Assembly (NCBI GenBank): GCA_040390065.1
Contig: JAZJZE010000017.1
Span: forward strand, 31,274-95,273
Direction: 5' to 3'
Length of the DNA: 64,000 bases
Origin: a bacterium
Lineage (GTDB): Archaea; Thermoplasmatota; E2; JACPAO01; JAHFTW01
In this document: in pieces, positions 643-62,559 of the stretch
How positions within the stretch are numbered: position 1 is the first letter of the stretch
How the letters are laid out: each line of letters starts with the position of its first letter
Program-made: the position numbers and the translations under genes
Notes under the pieces: generated by a model
Databases searched by the model: none
The model's input: the letters and a program-made list of their open reading frames with translations, nothing else
Told to the model about the DNA's origin: nothing

Positions 643-690
643 GCGTCGGCGCCCGTTGGTATCGGTTGCATCGGTGGCGTCGGTTGACTC
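643..690. repeat. Tandem 9-bp units, half copy of the dispersed 9-mer element (copy A1)
   Basis: The array reads cgttggtat cggttgcat cggtggcgt cggttgact. The same CATCNGTTG-type unit recurs at 7.5, 12.4, 15.5, 23.3, 52.2, 53.6, 57.8 and 60.0 kb. Confidence 0.6.
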
Positions 691-3443: not shown

Positions 3444-4724
3444 GTGCGCCGCGCCTTGGGGTGGACTGCTGCCGCCGGCCTTGCCGTCTTCGCCATCGCT
3501 TGCCTGGACCTCTTCCAGAGCGGCCCACTGACGACGCGGCTCGACCCTGCCGTGAACGACGCCGTCCTGCGCGCCCAGGATGCAGGCTTGGCCGTGGGCG
3601 ATGTGGGCGCCATCCTGTCGCTGCCCGGCGCGGGACCCGTCGACGTCGTGGTCGTCGCGGCGGCGGCGTTGTTGTTGGCCGCGTGGCGGCGGTGGGAATC
3701 GGCTGCCTTCGTCATGCTCACTCCCACATTGGGCGGCCGCCTCGTGGATGTCATGAAGGAATTCTTTGAGCGTGGCTTCCCGCCCGGCGAGATCGTCTTC
3801 GCGACCGGTGCTGGTGCGGCCGCCTCCGAGGTGCACAATCCTGCGCCCTTTGTCGGCCCGGCCTACGCGTTTCCCAGCGGCCACACGATGGGAGCGCTGC
3901 TGTCCGTTGCGCTGGCGGTCATCCTCGTCGCCGAGGCGTGGATGCAGCGCCGGGGCATGCCCTCGCACCGTGCGTGGCGTGTACGGTGGAGCGTGTTGGC
4001 CGCCTGCGGCGCCCTCGTGGTCTTGACCGGTATCGCCCGCGTCCTTCTCACCGTGCACTGGGTCAGCGATGTCCTGGCTTCGTGGGGGCTCGGCACGGCC
4101 ATCATCTGCGGCGTGCTCTTGGCCACGGGTTGGGGCGAGCCGGCGCCTTTAGATGCCGCAACTCGTCGCAACGTCGTGCGCGTCCTCGGGTTCACCGGCA
4201 TGCCGGGCAGCGGCAAATCGGAGGCCATGGAAGTCGCGAAGGCGCGCAGCATCCCCGTGGTGCGCATGGGCGATCTCATCTGGGAGGAGGTCGAGCGGCG
4301 CGGCCTGCCGCGTGATGCCAAGCACGTCGGCCAAGTCGCGAACGACATGCGCGAATCCCATGGCAAGGACATCTGGAGCAAGCGCACAGTCGAGAAGGTC
4401 CGCCACGTCGCCCGCGACAAGGGCATCGTCATCATCGACGGCGTGCGCAGTGACGCCGAGGTGGAGACCTTCCGCAGCGAGCTTGGCGGCGACTTCGTGC
4501 TCGTCGCCATCCACACGGACCGCCACCACCGCTTCGAGCGCATGCTTGCCCGGGGCCGCGCCGACGACCCGAAGGACGAAGCCGTCCTGCAAGTGCGCGA
4601 CGAACGCGAGATCGGCTGGGGCATGGCGGAATGCATCGCGTTGGCTGACGAGATGATCGTCAACGACTCCGACCTGCCGGAGTTCCGGGCGAAGGTCGGG
4701 GCCCTCCTTGACCGGTTGGCCTAG
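3444..4724 (+). CDS. Fusion protein: N-terminal PAP2 membrane phosphatase + C-terminal P-loop nucleotide-kinase-like domain (archaeal UPF0200 / dephospho-CoA-kinase-like family)
   Basis: PSGHTMGAL and ARVLLTVHWVSDVLASW are followed by VLGFTGMPGSGKSEAMEVAKARSIPVVRMGDLIWEEVERRGLP (Walker A at 4197-4220). GTG start. Confidence 0.8.
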   Translation: MRRALGWTAAAGLAVFAIACLDLFQSGPLTTRLDPAVNDAVLRAQDAGLAVGDVGAILSLPGAGPVDVVVVAAAALLLAAWRRWESAAFVMLTPTLGGRLVDVMKEFFERGFPPGEIVFATGAGAAASEVHNPAPFVGPAYAFPSGHTMGALLSVALAVILVAEAWMQRRGMPSHRAWRVRWSVLAACGALVVLTGIARVLLTVHWVSDVLASWGLGTAIICGVLLATGWGEPAPLDAATRRNVVRVLGFTGMPGSGKSEAMEVAKARSIPVVRMGDLIWEEVERRGLPRDAKHVGQVANDMRESHGKDIWSKRTVEKVRHVARDKGIVIIDGVRSDAEVETFRSELGGDFVLVAIHTDRHHRFERMLARGRADDPKDEAVLQVRDEREIGWGMAECIALADEMIVNDSDLPEFRAKVGALLDRLA

Positions 4725-11337: not shown

Positions 11338-11829
11338 TTGGTGGGCCGACTGGAATCAGAGGGGTTCCAGGAGGCAATCAGGCCCGACGTATCCAGCACA
11401 CTCAAGCGGGTGCGGGGATGGAGTGGGGGCGTGGCATCGGCGCGCGGCCGCATCACGGACGTGGAGGACTACATCGCGGGCCACAAGCCCGTCGTCCAGG
11501 AGCGCCTGCGGGAGTTGCGCGCGCTCGTGCGTGCCGGCGCGCCGCACCTGCAGGAATCGATGCGCCGCGACGTACCGACGTACCACGCCGAGGGCGTCGA
11601 CCGCATGTGGCTGCGCGGCTACGCGGACCACGCGACGCTTGGCTTCTTCGCCGGGGCGTCGCTTGCCGACGAAGCGCGGCTCCTGGAGGGATGGGGCCGC
11701 GAGCGGCATGTCAAGTTGTTTGCCCGCACGGCCCTGGACCGCGACGCCGTGCAGGGCCTCGTCAAGGCGTCGGCCGCGCCACGATCCGCTCACGTCCACC
11801 CAAGTAGGGTCGCAGCGGCTCCGGGATGA
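11338..11829 (+). CDS. DUF1801 (YdhG-like) domain protein
   Basis: VEDYIAGHKPVVQERLRELRALVRAGAPHLQESM...PTY pattern. The true start is probably the GTG at 11410 or 11431. The 3' end overlaps serS by 68 nt. Confidence 0.55.
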   Translation: MVGRLESEGFQEAIRPDVSSTLKRVRGWSGGVASARGRITDVEDYIAGHKPVVQERLRELRALVRAGAPHLQESMRRDVPTYHAEGVDRMWLRGYADHATLGFFAGASLADEARLLEGWGRERHVKLFARTALDRDAVQGLVKASAAPRSAHVHPSRVAAAPG

Positions 11830-13183
11830 GGACTGAGCCGTCGGCCTGCTGGAAGTTCTCCAGGATTGCAACCAATGTGCGCTGCACCGCGATGGCCGTG
11901 GAGTTGAGCGTGTGGACGACTTCCGTCGGGTCGCCCGGGTTCTTGCGGCTGCGCGTGTTGTAGCGCCGTGCCTGGAAGTCCGTGCAGTTCGAGCAGCTGA
12001 CGACTTCGCGGTACGCGCCCTGCGCCGGCATCCACGCCTCGATGTCGTACTTCTTCGCCGCGATGGAGCCGAGGTCGCCGGTGCAGATGTTCACGACGCG
12101 GTACGGAATCTTCAGTTTCTGGTACAGCGATTCCGCGTTGGCGATGAGCTCATCATGGATGCGCCATGAGTCCTCGGGCTTGCAATACACGAACATCTCG
12201 ACCTTGCTGAACTGGTGGACGCGGAAGATGCCCTTCGAGTCCTTGCCGTGCGCGCCAGCCTCCTTGCGGAAGCAGGGTGACACGCCCGCGTAGCGGAGAG
12301 GGAGTTTGGCGTCCTCGAGGATCTCGCCCATGTGCATTGCAGCGATGGGGTGCTCGGACGTGGCGATGAGGTACAGGTCCGGTTCTCGGGCCCGCCCGAA
12401 CTTGTCAACAGATGGAACAGATGCAGCAGATGAAGCGGACGGGCTGCCCGCAATCTGTTTGTTCTGTTTCATCTGTTGACCGTCCGTCGGCGGCCCCGAG
12501 GCCACTTCAACACCACCCGCCTCGACCTTGTAGATCACGGACTCGAAGTCCGCCAAATCGATTGCCCCCTCCAGGGCCTCGCGGCGAAGCAGGTACGGCG
12601 GCTCGATGGGCAGGAAGCCCTTCTTCGACAACTCCGTGAGCGCGAAGAACTCCAAGGCCCGACCAAGCATCACCAGGTCGCCCTTGAGGTAGAAAAAGCG
12701 GCTGCCGGCGGCGCGGGCGGCGCGTTCCAGGTCCGCAAGGTCGAGGGATTCCAGGAGGTCGACGTGCGACTTCGCCGGGAACGCATGCGTCGGCTTGCCG
12801 CCCCAGGCGCGAATCTCCACGTTCTCGGAATCGTCCCTGCCGACGGGGACCGAGGGATGCATGAGATTCGGGATGGTGCGAAGCAGACCGTCGCGAGTCT
12901 TCTCCGCTGTCGGCACGTCCGATTCGAGGCGCTTCAGTTCGTCGCCGAGTTGCGCCATCTTCGCAAGAATCTCCTTCGCATCGCCACCCGCCTTCTTCGC
13001 CTCCGCGATGAGCTTGCCCGACTTGTTGCGCTCCGCCCGCAAGGCCTCCATTTTCTGCAGGCCCTCGCGCCAGGCACGGTCATGTTCACGCACGTCGTCC
13101 ACGACGGCGGCGTCGCGACCGCGCTTCTTGAGGTCGGCTCGGACCCGTTCCGGGTCTTCTCGCAGGATGCGGATGTCAAGCAT
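11762..13183 (-). CDS. serS: Serine--tRNA ligase, carrying a 45-aa in-frame insertion
   Basis: MLDIRILREDPERV coiled-coil arm, LYLIATSEHPIAAMH, GVSPCFRKEAGAHGKDSKGIFRVHQFSKVE, and SNCTDFQARR. Confidence 0.92.
   Translation of the reverse strand: MLDIRILREDPERVRADLKKRGRDAAVVDDVREHDRAWREGLQKMEALRAERNKSGKLIAEAKKAGGDAKEILAKMAQLGDELKRLESDVPTAEKTRDGLLRTIPNLMHPSVPVGRDDSENVEIRAWGGKPTHAFPAKSHVDLLESLDLADLERAARAAGSRFFYLKGDLVMLGRALEFFALTELSKKGFLPIEPPYLLRREALEGAIDLADFESVIYKVEAGGVEVASGPPTDGQQMKQNKQIAGSPSASSAASVPSVDKFGRAREPDLYLIATSEHPIAAMHMGEILEDAKLPLRYAGVSPCFRKEAGAHGKDSKGIFRVHQFSKVEMFVYCKPEDSWRIHDELIANAESLYQKLKIPYRVVNICTGDLGSIAAKKYDIEAWMPAQGAYREVVSCSNCTDFQARRYNTRSRKNPGDPTEVVHTLNSTAIAVQRTLVAILENFQQADGSVLIPEPLRPYLGGRERIVARPTP
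12386..12520. repeat. Palindromic 9-mer element (copy A3) inserted in frame in serS
   Basis: The core at 12404-12480 reads gtcaacagatggaacagatgcagcagatgaagc-ggacgggctgcccg-caatctgtttgttctgtttcatctgttgac. The flank cgtccgtcggcggc is shared with the copy at 59.99 kb. 135 nt = 45 codons with no stop. Confidence 0.7.
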
Positions 13184-15490: not shown

Positions 15491-15584
15491 AATCAACCGA
15501 AGCAACAGAAGCAGCCGAACGACGGTCGGTCGGTTGCGTCGGTTGCGTCGGTTGGCAGGCCGGCGTCGTCGGGTCGGTTGATTA
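15491..15584. repeat. Full palindromic 9-mer element (copy A4) between convergent genes
   Basis: The termini aatcaaccga / tcggttgatt flank the arms agcaacagaagcagccgaac and cggttgcgtcggttgcgtcggttgg. The right terminus supplies the stop codon of the 15582..16145 gene. Confidence 0.65.
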
Positions 15585-19554: not shown

Positions 19555-21278
19555 TGGCCGACGTGAATCCCACGGTCGAGGCCCGCCGCACAGGCCGCGG
19601 CAGCCGCTACGACGCCGTGACCTTCCGCGCCTGCGAACCCTGCAAGGACTTTGCCCAATGGAAGGGCGTCTGGGTCATCGCCGAACACCGCGACGGCAAA
19701 CTGCGCGACGTGACGCGCGAACTCCTGGGCGCCGCGAAGCCCATGGCGGACAAGCTCAACCAGAAGATCACGGCCGTCATCCTTGGCCACGACGTGGGCG
19801 CCATGCCGCAGGAACTCGTCGCCGCCGGCGCCGACCAAGTGCTCGTCTGCGACCACGCGATCCTGAAGACGCCGCTCGCCCGGCCGAGCACCGACGTCCT
19901 CAACAAGCTCATCGAGGAGCGCAAGCCCAACGTCGTCCTCATCGGCGCCACGCACACGGGCCGCGACATCAGTTCGCGTGTTGCCGCCACCATCGACGCC
20001 GGCATGACGGCGGACTGCACGGAACTCGACGTCGATGCCGCGAACGGCGAACTCCTGGCACGCCGCCCGGCGTTTGGCGGCAAGATGCTGGCAACCATCC
20101 GCTGTGACCGCCACCGGCCGCAGATGGCGACGGCGCGTCCGGGCATCTTCAAGCCGTTGGCCGCCGACGCCAAACGCAAGGGCTCCATCGAACAAGTCGA
20201 CGTTGCGTGGCTGTCGCAGCGCACGTACGCCGCGCAACTCGTCGACTACGTCATCGACACGGCCTTCGACATCACGAAGGAGGACATCCTCGTCGCGGGC
20301 GGCATGGGCATCGGCGGACCCGAAGGCTTTGCCAAACTCGAGGAACTAGCGCTTGCCCTCGGCGGCCAAGTCGCTTGCTCTCGCCCTGTTGCGGACAAGG
20401 GCTGGCAGCCGCGCACACGGCAAGTCGGCCAGACCGGCGTCTCCGTGCGGCCGAAACTGTACATCGCCGTCGGCATCTCCGGCGCCATCCAGCACATCGA
20501 GGGCATGAAGGAATCCGGTACGATCATCGCCATCAACGCCGACCCCAACGCGGCCATCTTCGCCTACGCCGACATCGGCATCGTGGGCGACTGGAAGGGC
20601 CACGTCGACGCCCTCATCGTGGAGGCCAAGAAGCGCAATCTGGCCAAGGCGAAGTGGATGGTGCCGACGAAGGACACGCTCGACGCCGACCGGCAAGCAG
20701 CGGCCGAACGCGCGGCGAAAGCCAAGGCACCCGCGACGCCACCCGTGACCGCGCAACCGCCGATGCCGCCGAGCCCGGCGACCAAAGTCGAACCCAAGCA
20801 CGAGTCGCCGAAGGATTCGCGGCCGCCCCGCCCGACCTCGGAGCAGAAGGCCCCCGCGACGGCCGAAGCAAGCCCTGCGGCCAAGGCGGCTGTTGCGGAG
20901 CCGAAGCCCGCCGCGCAGGCCACGGTGCAAGTCGCTGCACCAGGCGCCACTGCCGCGTTCCCCGCCAAGTTCGCGGGCAACGCCAAGGACGTCGCGGCCG
21001 TCAAGGTCTACGCCAAAACCGTCCCCGAGGACCAGAAGGCCTGGGTCGTCGCCGCCGACTGCATCGTCTGCAACGGCTGCCAAGCCGCCTGCCCGACGGA
21101 CGCCGCCATCGTCACGGACATGGCGCGCGTCGACCGCGACCTCTGCATCGCCGACGGCGCCTGCTTCGACGCCTGCCCAACGGACGCCATCCGGCCGGGC
21201 CTCGAGGAGAAAGCCAAGAGCGGGGGCTGGCCGAAGGGATCGCGCCTGGCGGGGCAGTTCGGGACGCCGGAAGCGTAG
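19554..21278 (+). CDS. etfA: Electron transfer flavoprotein alpha subunit fused to a C-terminal Pro/Ala/Lys-rich linker and ferredoxin (Fe-S) domain
   Basis: VWVIAEHRDGKL, ILVAGGMGIG, VGQTGVSVRPKLYIAVGISGAIQH, then CIVCNGCQAACPTDA...CIADGACFDACPTDA at about 21060-21200. Confidence 0.88.
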   Translation: MADVNPTVEARRTGRGSRYDAVTFRACEPCKDFAQWKGVWVIAEHRDGKLRDVTRELLGAAKPMADKLNQKITAVILGHDVGAMPQELVAAGADQVLVCDHAILKTPLARPSTDVLNKLIEERKPNVVLIGATHTGRDISSRVAATIDAGMTADCTELDVDAANGELLARRPAFGGKMLATIRCDRHRPQMATARPGIFKPLAADAKRKGSIEQVDVAWLSQRTYAAQLVDYVIDTAFDITKEDILVAGGMGIGGPEGFAKLEELALALGGQVACSRPVADKGWQPRTRQVGQTGVSVRPKLYIAVGISGAIQHIEGMKESGTIIAINADPNAAIFAYADIGIVGDWKGHVDALIVEAKKRNLAKAKWMVPTKDTLDADRQAAAERAAKAKAPATPPVTAQPPMPPSPATKVEPKHESPKDSRPPRPTSEQKAPATAEASPAAKAAVAEPKPAAQATVQVAAPGATAAFPAKFAGNAKDVAAVKVYAKTVPEDQKAWVVAADCIVCNGCQAACPTDAAIVTDMARVDRDLCIADGACFDACPTDAIRPGLEEKAKSGGWPKGSRLAGQFGTPEA

Positions 21279-23312: not shown

Positions 23313-23362
23313 TACCGGTTGGTCGTGCCGCGTCATCTGTTGCATCGGTTGCATCTGTTGAC
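23313..23362. repeat. 9-mer array, half copy (A5)
   Basis: catctgttg catcggttg catctgttg ac, followed by ccgtcgtggtgg. Confidence 0.6.
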
Positions 23363-50093: not shown

Positions 50094-50860
50094 GCGCTTT
50101 GTGGAGTTTCTCTGAGGGGTCCAAAAACGCACCCCGTCCGCAGCGAGCCACCGAGACCAAACGATACGGGGGCGTGAGCGGGGAGGGTGAAGATGAAGTC
50201 AAAATCAGTTCCGTTGGCCCGGCCACCGCGCGGATGGTACAGGGTGCCAAAGGGCGTGTCAATGGTGTCGTAGAATTGGAAGGCGTAGTTGTGGCCGGCG
50301 TGGGCCACCTTGAAGGCAGGCCACGCGGTCTCGCCGAATAGCTCCCACGAGGTATGGAGTTCGAACGTGGCCTCGTTCGCTGGTCGAAGGACTTGCAGAT
50401 CTGCACCTCCAAAGAACTGGAGAAATACTCTTGCACCGGTCGAGGCCGGGGTTCCCTCCAACTCGACGAAGCCCGTTCCGCGTGTATCGTCGAATCGCGC
50501 AAAGCTATCGTGCGTCGTACCGGTCAAGACAAGAAGGCCCGAGCGCGGCGCCGGCAGTGCGAGGCCGGCGTATCCCAGGCCATATCGACCCGTCCGTGGG
50601 TCCATAAAGAGGGAATAGTGGACGCCTTCGGCCTTGCCGTCGCTCACACAAATCCAGAGGTCGTCCGGGGTTGACGCCTCCAAGGGCGCGGCCACGGCGT
50701 GATCTAGGCAATCGCGGGGTGCGCCACCTGGAAACGCCAAGGGACAGCCGTCGTGGTCCGCCAGGGACGGTCCGGCTCGATCGCTTATGGGGTCGTTTCC
50801 ACAGCCGGCCAGGGCGCACGCCAGCATTACGAAGGCGATTAGGCAGTCGAGGCTTGCCAT
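50090..50860 (-). CDS. Lipoprotein, hypothetical (in low-GC island)
   Basis: Lipobox ALAGC, with a GAGGA Shine-Dalgarno-like motif 5 nt upstream of the ATG. Confidence 0.6.
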   Translation of the reverse strand: MASLDCLIAFVMLACALAGCGNDPISDRAGPSLADHDGCPLAFPGGAPRDCLDHAVAAPLEASTPDDLWICVSDGKAEGVHYSLFMDPRTGRYGLGYAGLALPAPRSGLLVLTGTTHDSFARFDDTRGTGFVELEGTPASTGARVFLQFFGGADLQVLRPANEATFELHTSWELFGETAWPAFKVAHAGHNYAFQFYDTIDTPFGTLYHPRGGRANGTDFDFIFTLPAHAPVSFGLGGSLRTGCVFGPLRETPQSA

Positions 50861-50905
50861 TGATTCCTCAGATGGAAAAGGGAGAAAAGGGTTCGCTGGG
50901 CGTCC

Positions 50906-51838
50906 CTAGAGGGTTCCGGTTGTCCCGGTTCCGCGCATTAGGCTTTCGGAATCGAATTCCACGCCGTCACTGCATCCAACCGTGGCGCCAAATCGCTCGG
51001 TGACGTGAGCCCCCGAATCGAGCATTGTAACCTGGAGCCCGATTTCCAGTTCCCACGATATGGACCAACTACAGGATGATGCGCCCGACATTCCCCAAGC
51101 GCCTGCATCCACAATGTAGTCCATGGGATCCGTGTCCGCCGCTGCCCAGTGACCCAAGTAGGCACAAGTCACGAGGGAGTTATCGGATGTCCAAACAAAA
51201 TTCTCTGCGCCGGGGGCCTGGTCGATTTCCAATCCAAATGTCCATCCGTCGGCACCGTTGTTGAGGTTGTTAGTCGTCAAGCTGTATGACAAGTACATCG
51301 ACCCTTCCTGTTGGTCCTGATAGAGTTGGAACCAACTGCCTCCATTCCCCTGGATGACGTCCGTAATTGGTAAGGCCAGCTTTGCCCCGTCGCGGCAGAC
51401 GTCAAGCGGACCCACGGCAGGAAGGGAAGGCAGTGCCGCGCAAGATTTGATTGACTTGCTATTCGAAATCCAATTTCCTGATGCGTCCTTCTCGAACAGC
51501 TCCGCGGAGCTCATGCACGACGACCAAGCCCCGCATAGGGGGGCTGCGGCGGCAGATACACCTTTCACGAGGATGGTGTCGGTGCGGGTAACTGATCCGG
51601 TCAAGCCGGACGCCACGTACGCGACCTTCATCTCCACGCGGCTGTCCGAGGCAAAGGACGTGGCATGCCAGCGGAAGCCCGTTGTTCCGAGTGGGCAGTC
51701 TTGGGCGGCATCCATGGCAACGGAGCCGGCGGGGGTGAGCGCGGCCGCCGGGCCAGCCACAAGAACAGCGGGTGTTGCGACCATCAGAATGCATAGGACG
51801 GCGTACGGTGCCGTGGTAATTGTCGTACGAAGGCTCAT
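50906..51838 (-). CDS. Secreted/anchored protein, hypothetical (about 50% G+C by spot count, compositionally foreign)
   Basis: N-terminal hydrophobic anchor and a Ser/Thr/Asn/Trp-rich sequence unlike the rest of the window. A ggtaaatacc box lies about 26 nt upstream. Confidence 0.6.
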   Translation of the reverse strand: MSLRTTITTAPYAVLCILMVATPAVLVAGPAAALTPAGSVAMDAAQDCPLGTTGFRWHATSFASDSRVEMKVAYVASGLTGSVTRTDTILVKGVSAAAAPLCGAWSSCMSSAELFEKDASGNWISNSKSIKSCAALPSLPAVGPLDVCRDGAKLALPITDVIQGNGGSWFQLYQDQQEGSMYLSYSLTTNNLNNGADGWTFGLEIDQAPGAENFVWTSDNSLVTCAYLGHWAAADTDPMDYIVDAGAWGMSGASSCSWSISWELEIGLQVTMLDSGAHVTERFGATVGCSDGVEFDSESLMRGTGTTGTL

Positions 51839-51927
51839 GGTTCACCAAAAATCGTGCCGGTATTTACCCGGCATTTGAGGGCAGAGGCGCCTGAATATCT
51901 AACCGTTTCTGCCGGGTGAAAACGGGC

Positions 51928-52107
51928 ATGGGTCGTCCCCGGATGCCTGCCAATCGCCGCCGGAAAAAGGTCACAATCACGCCCGATCCGCGTGTCGTGG
52001 CCTTCGTCGACGAGCGCATCGGCCTCGGCAAGCCGTACAAGAACCGGACGCATGCCTTTGAGCAGGCGGTCGCCTGCCTCATGTCGAACGATGCGAAGAA
52101 ATCCTGA
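51928..52107 (+). CDS. Small ribbon-helix-helix-like protein (CopG-like), hypothetical
   Basis: A basic N-terminus is followed by KKVTITPDPRVVAFVDERI...RTHAFEQAVACLM (beta-alpha-alpha pattern). A gaatatc box lies about 32 nt upstream. A GTG at 51916 is also possible. Confidence 0.45.
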   Translation: MGRPRMPANRRRKKVTITPDPRVVAFVDERIGLGKPYKNRTHAFEQAVACLMSNDAKKS

Positions 52108-52161
52108 AGGAGGAAATGCTCCCCGACGATTGGACGTCTCGATGCGGCCCCGACGGCGGGG

Positions 52162-52192
52162 CAACAGATGCAACAGATGCAACCGATAGCGA
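52162..52192. repeat. 9-mer array, half copy in reverse orientation (A6)
   Basis: caacagatg caacagatg caaccgata. At 52262-52292 it is followed by caagtgattgaccggtttgcagg, a diverged copy of the C-module terminus. Confidence 0.55.
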
Positions 52193-52339
52193 CGGCCGTG
52201 CAAGCGGTGTGGGCGGCAACCGCGCGCCGTTCCGTTGGGTCGAGCCGCGCGAAGGTCCACGCGCAAGTGATTGACCGGTTTGCAGGCCACCGAATCCCAA
52301 ACGTGGATTCAAATCCCGTCAGACCCACGGCCCTGGTCC

Positions 52340-52891
52340 ATGGGCCCGAAAACCCTGACCCTTCTCCTGCTTGTCGGCTCCCTGGCGGGCTGTGCGTCGT
52401 CCCCGACATATCCTGACGGCTACCTCGTCGACCGCAACCACCTCGAAGGCGAGATGGCCATCTCGTCCACGAATGAAGCCTCGGGCCCCCCGTACTACGC
52501 CTCGCTGGTGCCGGCGTCGACTCTGGCGTTCAGTCCGCTTGTTGGAACCAATCCCGAAGAGACTTGGCAGCAGCTCATCACGCACCCGGCCATCGACGGC
52601 GAGGGGCGTACGTATCCGAAGGGGATGACGCTCATGGCGGCGCGCTACGGCTCCGTAAGTGACGCCAAGGCCGCGGCCGACCACTACTTGGCGGCGCTGC
52701 AGGGCACGAAGTGCGACTTCTACAAGCCTGGCACGTTTGCCTTCCGCGGCGACGATGTGCTCGTCGTCGGATTCGACGGGGGCGACATGCCGTATCCTCT
52801 GTCCCTGATGCGCTCGTCGGTCGCCGGCATGCACCCGGATCTCACCTTCGTCGCCCAGGGGTGCTACCTGAGGCCCACCTTCGGAACCTAG
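52340..52891 (+). CDS. Lipoprotein, hypothetical
   Basis: MGPKTLTLLLLVGSLAGC lipobox. Confidence 0.6.
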   Translation: MGPKTLTLLLLVGSLAGCASSPTYPDGYLVDRNHLEGEMAISSTNEASGPPYYASLVPASTLAFSPLVGTNPEETWQQLITHPAIDGEGRTYPKGMTLMAARYGSVSDAKAAADHYLAALQGTKCDFYKPGTFAFRGDDVLVVGFDGGDMPYPLSLMRSSVAGMHPDLTFVAQGCYLRPTFGT

Positions 52892-53628: not shown

Positions 53629-53662
53629 GTCAACAGATGCAACAGATGCAACCGATGACCGA
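53629..53662. repeat. 9-mer array, reverse orientation (A7)
   Basis: gt caacagatg caacagatg caaccgatg accgac. A degenerate partner arm (..gatcggttag) may lie at about 53730. Confidence 0.6.
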
Positions 53663-57764: not shown

Positions 57765-57836
57765 GTCAACCGATGGAACCGATGAAACAGATGGACAGCC
57801 GCGTCGGCATCGGTTCGATCTGTTGCATCTGTTGAT
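57765..57836. repeat. Full palindromic 9-mer element (A8)
   Basis: gtcaaccgatggaaccgatgaaacagatggac-agccgc-gtcggcatcggttcgatctgttgcatctgttgat. Confidence 0.7.
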
Positions 57837-59904: not shown

Positions 59905-60021
59905 CATCTTCTGTCCGTCCTCGGTTGCATCGGGGCATCTGCGGATGGGCGGTCGGCCCTGTTCATCGGTTGCATCCGTTGCATCTGTTGACCGGTCGTC
60001 GGCGGCGTTGGCATCCGTCGA
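59905..60021. repeat. 9-mer array (A9)
   Basis: catcggttg catccgttg catctgttg ac cggtcgtcggcggc, with degenerate units on both sides. Confidence 0.65.
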
Positions 60022-62157: not shown

Positions 62158-62310
62158 GTGCGAGCGCATCGGCGCGAGCCTGCCGGGGGTCGCGGGGGCC
62201 GGCAGGCCCCCCGGCGGGGGGAAACGGGCGGGGGGCGGCAGCCCTCCGCCGCGATGTGGCGAGGCGAAGCCGAGGCAGGACATCGCAAATGATCGACCTG
62301 TTTGCAGGTC
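62158..62310 (-). repeat. Three-hairpin module, copy C2 (right arm of inverted pair)
   Basis: The core 62186-62310 is the reverse complement of 59713-59837 with 2 mismatches. The outer ~40 nt are more diverged. Confidence 0.8.
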
Positions 62311-62391
62311 GAGGGGCGGCAGTCCCCCGCCGCGGTGTCGCGAGGCGAAGCCGATGCAAGACACCGCAAATGATCGACCTGTTTGCAGGTC
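62311..62391 (-). repeat. Three-hairpin module, tandem partial copy C3
   Basis: There are 7 differences from the last 81 nt of C2. The stem gcgatgt/acatcgc becomes gcggtgt/acaccgc (a compensatory pair), and the other changes fall in loops. Confidence 0.75.
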
Positions 62392-62430
62392 GGGCGAGGG
62401 CCGCCGGGGGCACTGGCATGCTGCGGGCGG

Positions 62431-62504
62431 CCTGGGAGAACAGGAGCCGGCCTGTGAACCGGAACTCGCTCACCTTCTCTCCACGTGGTTCCTGTTCTCC
62501 CAGG
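62431..62504. repeat. 15-bp perfect inverted repeat (long hairpin) upstream of epimerase gene
   Basis: cctgggagaacagga (62431-62445) and tcctgttctcccagg (62490-62504), separated by a 44-nt spacer. Confidence 0.7.
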
Positions 62505-62559
62505 CCCCCCACTCAGGAACAAGCCGCAAACTCATTGACCCCGCCACCTTCGCCGTGGC

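Follow-up and report, generated by a model that had tools for sequence, protein, structure and literature searches.

A palindromic member of a dispersed 9-mer repeat family in frame within an archaeal seryl-tRNA synthetase gene, and a GxxExxY nuclease gene as its candidate partner

The seryl-tRNA synthetase gene (serS) on contig JAZJZE010000017.1 (assembly GCA_040390065.1), analysed here within a stretch of 64 kb (the window), raises the question of whether an essential gene can hold, in frame, a copy of a dispersed repeat and of where such a copy would come from. The original prediction held that about 45 residues (135 nt) of this seryl-tRNA synthetase (SerRS) are extra and that their DNA is a copy of an intergenic palindromic family. 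Translation of the minus-strand open reading frame (ORF) returned SerRS as it had been read, and the parts of the gene that matter below are the following.

11762..13183, minus strand: serS, seryl-tRNA synthetase, an intact ORF of 473 aa with the Pfam domains Seryl_tRNA_N and tRNA-synt_2b
12386..12520, minus strand: 45 extra codons in serS (aa 222-266, AGGVEVASGPPTDGQQMKQNKQIAGSPSASSAASVPSVDKFGRAR), between the strand IYKVE and EPDLYLIATSEHP
12385..12500: 116-nt palindrome in serS, the element proper, in the order outer stem, arm, spacer, arm, outer stem
12404..12431, minus strand: serS arm G2, in minus-strand reading ATCTGCTGC ATCTGTTCC ATCTGTTGA-C, coding for ...ASSAASVPSVD
12453..12480, plus strand: serS arm G1, ATCTGTTTG TTCTGTTTC ATCTGTTGA-C, whose complement codes for QQMKQNKQI
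12385..12396: left half of the outer stem, CTCGGGCCCGCC, pairing with 12489-12500
12489..12500: right half of the outer stem, GGCGGCCCCGAG, pairing with 12385-12396
Predicted junction-spanning peptide of the SerRS insert, for example QIAGSPSASSAASVPSVDK; a second predicted insert peptide is ...VEVASGPPTDGQQMK

On alignment to P. horikoshii SerRS (2dq0), residue 221 corresponds to position 243 and residue 267 to position 244. Given that these two positions are adjacent across the insert, residues 222-266 are without any counterpart there, and the extra segment amounts to exactly 45 codons at a site with zero residues in 2dq0. The relatives closest to our SerRS are proteins of Thermoplasmatota metagenome-assembled genomes; most close orthologues lack the segment as well and show a loop of 7-13 aa instead. 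The original prediction had allowed for an old loop shared by orthologues, and no orthologue with the same segment was found among the SerRS relatives compared. The nearest element-free one, P0002, has a 10-aa loop (AGVSDDGKGK), found again in the distant clade members P0014 and P0018. As predicted, the insert is in frame and without a stop codon and, its net length being a multiple of three, the SerRS enzyme stays intact. Indeed, every clade-invariant SerRS residue is present, and the catalytic domain shares 94% identity with its counterparts in P0002 and in P0027, a partial SerRS of a sister lineage from another assembly and sample. The insert core looks unlike the coding sequence of this genome: G+C at third codon positions (GC3) is 0.44 compared to 0.855 in the remaining serS, where the minimum 25-codon window is 0.72. 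Furthermore, the Logan assembly (SRR26324623), made by a second assembler, shows 100% identity over 7,699 nt including the insert; since the two assemblies are identical across it, the palindrome is not the product of one assembler.

The element had been equated with all 135 nt. This figure holds for the insertion, but as the clade already has a variable loop, of 7-23 aa, at the site, the element accounts for ~ 116 nt (codons 229-266) and not for the whole. Arms G1 and G2 are 28 nt each and 82% complementary, and the halves of the outer stem, which are 92% complementary and in register with the arms, lengthen the palindrome to 116 nt. The palindrome folds as one long hairpin, with -72.7 kcal/mol as RNA compared to -42.2 +/- 4.0 for shuffles (z -7.6, 0/200) and z -5.4 when folded as DNA.

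The arms belong to a family that recurs along the window. Put in register, an arm consists of three tandem 9-mers with the consensus ATCKGTTGC ATCKGTTGC ATCTGTTGA-C, ending in GAC; T2, C3 and G5 are invariant across all 33 repeat units, and the flanks are GC-rich and poorly conserved. Eight loci with 11 arms were found in the window, five being singles and three inverted doubles (serS, E and H). All copies other than that of serS are intergenic, among housekeeping genes, with no fixed position relative to starts and stops.

661..688, plus strand: copy A, single arm, intergenic between PheRS-alpha and short-chain dehydrogenase
15492..15555: copy H, inverted double, intergenic, ~ 40 nt past a stop codon; moderate hairpin, z -3.0
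23335..23362, plus strand: copy B, single arm, upstream of the Mrp/NUBPL ATPase gene; 31/35 to a serS arm
52160..52187, minus strand: copy C, single arm, divergent intergenic region
53629..53656, minus strand: copy D, single arm, ~ 20 nt past the stop of an HhH-domain gene; 22/23 to a serS arm
57765..57836: copy E, inverted double, intergenic between PFK and ABC-F; not a stable hairpin, z -0.4
59965..59992, plus strand: copy F, single arm, divergent region between ABC-F and Nop5

Motif counts, array counts and blastn all place the resemblance above chance. The motif CATCTGTTGAC with at most one mismatch gives 8 matches where 0.64 are expected, and ATCKGTTNNATCKGTT gives 17 where 0.05 are expected. 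Strict triple arrays number 7 in the window and 0 in 50 shuffles, and under relaxed scoring the figures are 16 and 0. Searched by blastn against the rest of the window, the serS segment matches D (22/23), B (31/35) and F (23/25) at 34-38 bits, compared to a maximum of 32 among 100 shuffled queries. The match to F, at 59982-60006, bears out the predicted likeness of terminus and flank to a copy near 59981-60008. The flank CGTCGGCGGC, which had been offered as evidence as well, is common in this genome because the latter is GC-rich, and therefore counts only where it is contiguous with an array. Likewise, the layout said to match 57765-57836 is the same inverted arrangement, but copy E is not a stable hairpin; among the doubles, hairpin stability falls from serS (z -7.6, very stable) through H to E, while all of them share one arm topology. 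That the serS segment is an in-frame copy of this dispersed repeat family is, in our view, close to certain.

No transposase was found near the family copies in the window, where the neighbours are all housekeeping genes, and an Rfam scan of the window gave two tRNA-Thr genes and no match at any repeat copy. A lower-threshold array scan of the window revealed no further genic copy, with one chance-level match at 21054. Arms E2 and F were considered as ends of a mobile 2.2-kb unit, an idea dropped because the gene inside is an ABC-F ATPase. Around copy C, the window at 50100-52200 has a G+C content of 54-62% compared to 68% and may be foreign DNA; ORFs of this region at 50906..51838 (minus) and 52271..52891 (plus), between which the copy lies, have signal-peptide- or lipoprotein-like N-termini and no Pfam match.

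A candidate partner for the arrays lies just outside the window. The Logan contig L153 overlaps the window and extends the sequence 7.3 kb leftward, which brings the genome sequence covered to 71 kb, and it carries a gene of the GxxExxY (PDDEXK_3) family, a family widespread in bacteria, archaea and viruses.

L153:4720-5172: GxxExxY / PDDEXK_3 unit, on the contig of serS, ~ 2.1-2.6 kb to the left of window position 1
L153:4720-4749, minus strand: left array of the unit, outward-facing
L153:5143-5172, plus strand: right array of the unit, outward-facing

The two arrays, which show the same arm topology as the doubles, lie 29 and 26 nt from the ends of a domain matching PF13366 (7.8e-35) and TIGR04256 (7.1e-38), with profile scores of 129.5 bits against a cut-off of 35 and 120.2 against a cut-off of 22; the motifs GYLERGY and D...IELK are intact. 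The start ATG of the nuclease ORF is found within the left array (MKQMQQM...) and the frame continues through the right one (...SSVSSVPSVE...) for ~ 60 more residues, hence the native start and stop of this gene appear to have been replaced. In the protein database the gene stands on the same 96,495-nt contig as serS, ~ 14.5 kb from the insert. Moreover, an exact 19-mer, CATCTGTTCCATCTGTTGA, is common to serS arm G2 and the right arm of the nuclease unit (L153:5151) and is otherwise absent from the 71 kb. In nuclease ORFs the arrays supply the N- and C-terminal tails, and they are read there in the frame that the serS insert uses; this identity may explain why the frame is open and harmless. 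BLASTP of the insert peptide against the nuclease gave no alignment, and a PDB sequence search with the nuclease found no solved relative. No published description of GxxExxY gene ends was found in the literature searched.

The same bracketing is observed in other archaea and in bacteria. On an archaeal contig from the assembly of P0027 (L155), an intact nuclease ORF (P0122) is bracketed by AACCACCGAT... and ...ATCGGTGGTT arrays, and the serS insert of P0027 shares an exact 19-mer with this L155 unit, whereas cross-genome matches reach only 9-10 nt. Another archaeal nuclease (P0133, contig L154) is likewise bracketed by arrays, and L154 also holds at 4004-4064 a cargo-less double array with a hairpin of -55 kcal/mol, which forms the C-terminal tail of an archaeosine tRNA-guanine transglycosylase ORF; this tail reads ...AQPPMTPIAPMQSIGGIGAIGGSSGGRA up to the stop and ends just ahead of the next gene, whose start overlaps. 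In CP132719.1 (L156:9993-10424) the GxxExxY gene is located between thiolase and 3-hydroxyacyl-CoA dehydrogenase, and its unit has 28-nt terminal inverted repeats made of three CGCAGATG-type 9-mers that match at 27/28 positions, while in Bacteroides finegoldii and in the Bernardetia plasmid copies the inverted triplets of 9-mers are built from yet other units. Under a uniform terminal-repeat test, 6 of 12 GxxExxY loci scored 16-25 compared to shuffled maxima of 9-12. A subgroup of the homologues also shows array-encoded termini, MxQMTQMD... and ...SSATSAVSN.

Bacterial GxxExxY genes were seen wedged in short gaps of housekeeping operons: thiolase/3-hydroxyacyl-CoA dehydrogenase (L156), fabD/fabG (L164, Sphingomonas), radA/FAD protein (L159, Bacteroides) and adenine deaminase/guanylyltransferase (L161, Bernardetia). 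A scan of genome contigs with the pattern ATCBGTTNNATCBGTTNNATCBGTT gave at least 120 loci, all those listed being bacterial and many cyanobacterial; no archaea are among the matches listed, and the scan is silent on the distribution of the family in archaea. Among these matches (L005-L124), triple ATCBGTT-type 9-mer arrays occur often in cyanobacteria of filamentous form (Microcoleus, Calothrix, Dulcicalothrix) and also in Chloroflexota, Bacteroidota and Planctomycetota. At L024, one of two array loci with a GxxExxY gene, the gene is truncated and enclosed by GTAAGCGGAT...ATCCGCTTAC arrays. In viral sequences the double-arm pattern had 0 matches, and the single-arm pattern had 2 chance matches in low-GC, glutamine-rich coding sequence. 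The metagenome double-arm scan returned 21 loci, nearly all unrelated palindromes, with 9-mer arms in L136 and L144 only; it yields little because exact array termini are too lineage-specific.

Where in the enzyme would such an insert sit? In the AlphaFold model, built on a 38-sequence alignment, the insert lies between strands 217-220 (IYKV) and 270-273 (LYLI) as coil without secondary structure, at a per-residue confidence (pLDDT) below 50, and it is thus predicted to form a disordered loop on a beta-hairpin turn of the catalytic domain. On alignment to human SerRS (residue 269 to human 264), the insert site coincides with Insertion II (G254-N261). In higher-eukaryote SerRS this insertion is reported to lie near the active site and to be of negligible weight for aminoacylation (PMC10817482). 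The same loop holding human Insertion II, the site is therefore one already known to accept lineage-specific insertions. The two are alike in being lineage-specific and in occupying one and the same loop of the catalytic domain, which immediately precedes the DLYLIxTxE strand, the human one being reported as dispensable for aminoacylation (PMC10817482). They differ in that Insertion II has 8 residues, is conserved, is not derived from a repeat and, in human SerRS, contributes to DNA binding, a non-canonical role (PMC10817482).

The history of the insert can be approached through the same loop in relatives. Distant members of the clade have none, most have 7-13 aa and a few have 20-27 aa without repeat structure; no 9-mer arrays were found in the long loops of P0003, P0025, P0065 and P0054, whose folds (with no shuffle control) are weaker than those of our serS and P0027, P0065 coming close behind. 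P0027 is different. Indeed, it has another insert, of 40 aa, in the same loop and the same frame, whose DNA reads CCACCGATT GCACCGATA CCACCGAAT, spacer, TCGGTGCAG TCGGTGAAA TCGGTGGTT: three 9-mers, a spacer and three inverted 9-mers. Its hairpin is as strong as that of our serS and its unit, ATCGGTG, differs from ours. At 4-fold degenerate sites the four closest lineages are 44-52% different, which is near saturation, and yet the serS arms are 82% complementary to one another and 88-96% identical to the intergenic copies. This comparison makes the serS element either much younger than the lineage splits or one that conversion or selection keeps uniform. With the loop masked, the tree places our SerRS, P0027 and P0002 in a near-trichotomy, P0002 being without the element and with a short ancestral-type loop. 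Given the trichotomy, the saturated silent sites, the exact 19-mers that tie each serS insert to its own nuclease unit and a repeat unit that differs in all six repeats at once, the sequences favour separate acquisitions by the two lineages, or ongoing homogenisation to the family of each genome, over the inheritance of one old insert. An exhaustive peptide search with the insert against 1.84 billion representatives gave only 4 weak low-complexity matches (35-42 bits), which provides no protein evidence for further hosts of this peptide.

[quoted passage not shown] The segment would be a cargo-less inverted double of a short interspersed repeat, with GC-rich flanks that extend the pairing to 116 nt. 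One double would have landed in, or been copied into, the beta-hairpin turn of the SerRS catalytic domain, already hypervariable in the clade, and would then be translated as a Q/K/S/A-rich, predicted-disordered loop with which the enzyme is presumably active. In this system the unit with the nuclease would act as partner of the single and double arrays, themselves mobile, gene-less copies that would be spread or maintained in trans. As for the GxxExxY nuclease being what mobilises the arrays, the case stands close to balance and falls slightly short of it. We put forward with more reserve the wider proposal that GxxExxY genes are partners of undescribed small selfish elements with inverted three-9-mer ends, also in archaea, whose cargo-less copies may have colonised the same SerRS loop at least twice independently. 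If true, this would be a PD-(D/E)XK-based counterpart of REPIN-RAYT, shedding cargo-less singles and doubles, and the doubles, being open in the nuclease-tail frame, would be able to colonise permissive loops of essential proteins.

Several observations weigh against this reading. Target-site duplication is absent around the serS copy and the archaeal units, and the sole candidate, GAGTTTTTA on both sides in CP132719, is offset on one side. Five of the 12 GxxExxY loci are without terminal repeats and one more is borderline, and among the matches listed in the genome-contig scan a GxxExxY gene is nearby (8-kb stretch) in only 2 of 120 bacterial array loci. Our nuclease gene has no near-identical paralogues, the next match being 63% identical, and the contigs L155 and L002 come from one metagenome assembly and are not demonstrably from one organism. 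We know of no PD-(D/E)XK protein of such a family that alone is a transposase. The GxxExxY PD-(D/E)XK family is listed as of function unknown, with multiple horizontal transfers (PMC3424549). The intergenic double E does not form a hairpin. Moreover, our serS and the outgroup P0003 share the loop flanks AGGxEV...GRAREPD, with synonymous differences, which means that some of the outer stem may be coding sequence of greater age. Lastly, AlphaFold confidence is low in the conserved neighbours of the insert too (198-221 and 268-277), and the model hence supports a floppy loop and no more.

The main rival explanation is that the arrays are not mobile at all and are binding or target sites of a protein, perhaps the GxxExxY nuclease, the serS copy having arisen via recombination or gene conversion; in a homing-type version, the nuclease gene would lie inside one palindromic double that is its own recognition site. 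The usual mode of recognition by PD-(D/E)XK enzymes, as dimers on palindromic sites, fits this explanation, and so do the position of the nuclease gene between two inverted arms exactly like a double copy, its single-copy state, the poor conservation of flanks outside the arrays, and the lack of a target-site duplication and of a transposase in the window. However, 8 loci in 64 kb are too dense for a regulon and their positions relative to genes vary. The unit sequence is lineage-specific under a constant design, a pattern that co-evolving element ends would be expected to show, and the bacterial gene-plus-array unit occurs in different housekeeping operons, which looks like whole-unit mobility. 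Under the homing version many sites should be filled by the gene, which is not what is seen. We thus regard this explanation as unlikely, if the most serious of those considered.

A lower probability still is given to the idea that a single arm entered serS and that the palindrome was made in place by template-switch inverted duplication (quasi-palindrome correction), extending into coding sequence. The serS hairpin is indeed longer and better than those of the intergenic doubles (z -7.6 compared to -3.0 and -0.4), and the outer stem includes GRAR codons that P0003 also encodes, with synonymous differences. Nevertheless, the two-arm topology is common to all doubles, including the nuclease-flanking pair, L154 and P0027, and hence is a standard form; furthermore, 18% of positions differ between the serS arms, and each arm is closest to other members of the family.

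It is very improbable that the insert is outside a working enzyme, either removed from the mRNA or protein or carried by a decaying serS with another serS at work. The 71 kb covered leave room for a second serS elsewhere, and a hairpin of -73 kcal/mol is unusual in an mRNA. On the other hand, by inspection the fold shows only small symmetric internal loops, without the two 3-nt bulges 4 bp apart that define an archaeal bulge-helix-bulge splice site, and 45 aa are too short for an intein, so that neither the predicted fold nor the insert length offers a feature in support of such an intron or an intein. Regarding decay, the ORF is intact with every invariant residue in place, and 94% identity to relatives whose silent sites are saturated implies purifying selection on serS.

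We find it barely credible that the segment represents an old loop specific to this SerRS lineage, with a coincidental or convergent resemblance to intergenic repeats: the clade does have a variable loop, with several members at 20-27 aa without repeat structure, but no orthologue has the segment, its GC3 of 0.44 is far outside the range of the gene, and 88-96% identity to intergenic copies together with the exact 19-mer of the nuclease unit persists despite saturated silent sites. An assembly artefact has a negligible probability since, even though assemblers can produce or collapse palindromes and repeats and Logan contigs break near other repeats, two assemblies are identical across the insert and several kb each side, and an equivalent palindrome with its frame preserved is found at the same site in the sister lineage, from another sample.

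Returning to the reading of a cargo-less, translated copy, its closest known analogue is of interest. The original prediction compared the insert to Rickettsia palindromic elements (RPEs); the design of an in-frame, putatively translated palindrome supports this likeness, but as the family is tied to a GxxExxY nuclease gene, REPIN-RAYT is the nearer analogue. In REPIN-RAYT systems too, the repeat lies on both sides of its own single-copy gene, which resembles a nuclease or transposase (Bertels & Rainey; PMC3116915; 10.1101/2021.07.10.451892), dispersed gene-less inverted doubles of ~ 100 bp that can form hairpins occur alongside decayed singles, and the repeat is lineage-specific and goes with the gene of the lineage. 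Here, 3 doubles and 5 singles are found in the window, with a single-copy flanked partner (L153:4720-5172, L154, L155). However, our partner is a PD-(D/E)XK protein of the GxxExxY type (PF13366 / TIGR04256), with predicted catalysis, and not an HUH/Y1 (IS200-like) RAYT, and our arms are three direct 9-mers with no internal palindrome whereas REP arms contain a short one; given these differences in arm structure and partner gene type, the serS family falls outside the REPINs. In addition, the host is archaeal and one copy is inside an essential gene, whereas REPINs are almost exclusively extragenic and are stated to be undetected in archaea (10.1101/2021.07.10.451892).

RPEs are palindromic copies lying in frame in unrelated housekeeping genes and translated at positions considered compatible with the fold (PMC10969869, summarising Ogata et al. 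2000, 2002). The serS insert resembles them as a hairpin-forming, in-frame and stop-free member of a family with intergenic copies, in a host ORF that is conserved. It differs in host and unit, an archaeon and a 9-mer array without an Rfam match in the region as opposed to bacterial elements of ~ 100-150 bp, presumably in sequence, and in its number, with one genic copy in 71 kb compared to dozens per genome. We know of no nuclease gene associated with RPEs, and membership of the RPE family proper is not claimed. With MITEs the family shares a small size, terminal inverted repeats (28-nt arms, 82%), a non-coding and multicopy nature and a longer gene-carrying relative with the same ends; here the longer unit, with its exact 19-mer, encodes a single-copy PD-(D/E)XK protein. 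The serS family differs from MITEs in that it has no target-site duplication, which rules out membership in the strict sense, and in that its ends are tandem 9-mers and the gene of the longer relative is no recognised transposase. In archaea, MITEs are reported from Sulfolobus, Halobacterium and Haloquadratum, and ~ 11% of those in archaea reportedly lie outside intergenic regions (PMC10969869, PMC11602168).

The occurrence of one repeat both within serS and around a nearby nuclease gene suggests a so-far undescribed kind of mobile DNA system, and in agreement with the original prediction no described archaeal counterpart was found within the part of the literature covered. The locus would provide an archaeal example, open to direct testing, of a translated repeat in an essential gene, which to our knowledge is a textbook curiosity known almost only from Rickettsia. 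It also gives an anonymous repeat a candidate protein partner from a large family without known function. If the link is true, GxxExxY proteins would gain a role, REPIN-like systems would extend beyond HUH transposases and bacteria, and one way in which a highly conserved enzyme acquires new surface loops would come into view. Two sister lineages with different palindromes in one SerRS loop are, moreover, a natural experiment on insertion-tolerant sites.

Some further observations concern serS, its relatives and its surroundings. A convergent DUF1801 gene (11338..11829, plus strand) and serS share 68 nt at their 3' ends (11762-11829), and the overlap is called likewise in an independent Logan contig (L151:3454-3942). 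P0096 (611 aa), a SerRS homologue of the same clade, has a further large and lineage-specific insertion, of ~ 170 residues, within the N-terminal coiled-coil tRNA-binding arm. Nop5, fibrillarin and aRF1 near serS and a Thermoplasmatota-like SerRS mark the gene content as archaeal, but NCBI names the protein P0121, from this contig, 'MAG: GxxExxY protein [bacterium]', and the source genome seems to be filed without archaeal classification. Towards the right end of the window, where the Logan contig ends at ~ 62116, there follows at 62232-62392 a tandem duplication of 81 nt, 91% identical (TRF score 273) and unrelated to the 9-mer family. Its unit holds a perfect small hairpin, TCGACCTG-TTTG-CAGGTCGA, and after the tandem repeat, at 62425-62510, comes a separate inverted repeat whose arms are 24 nt long (92%).

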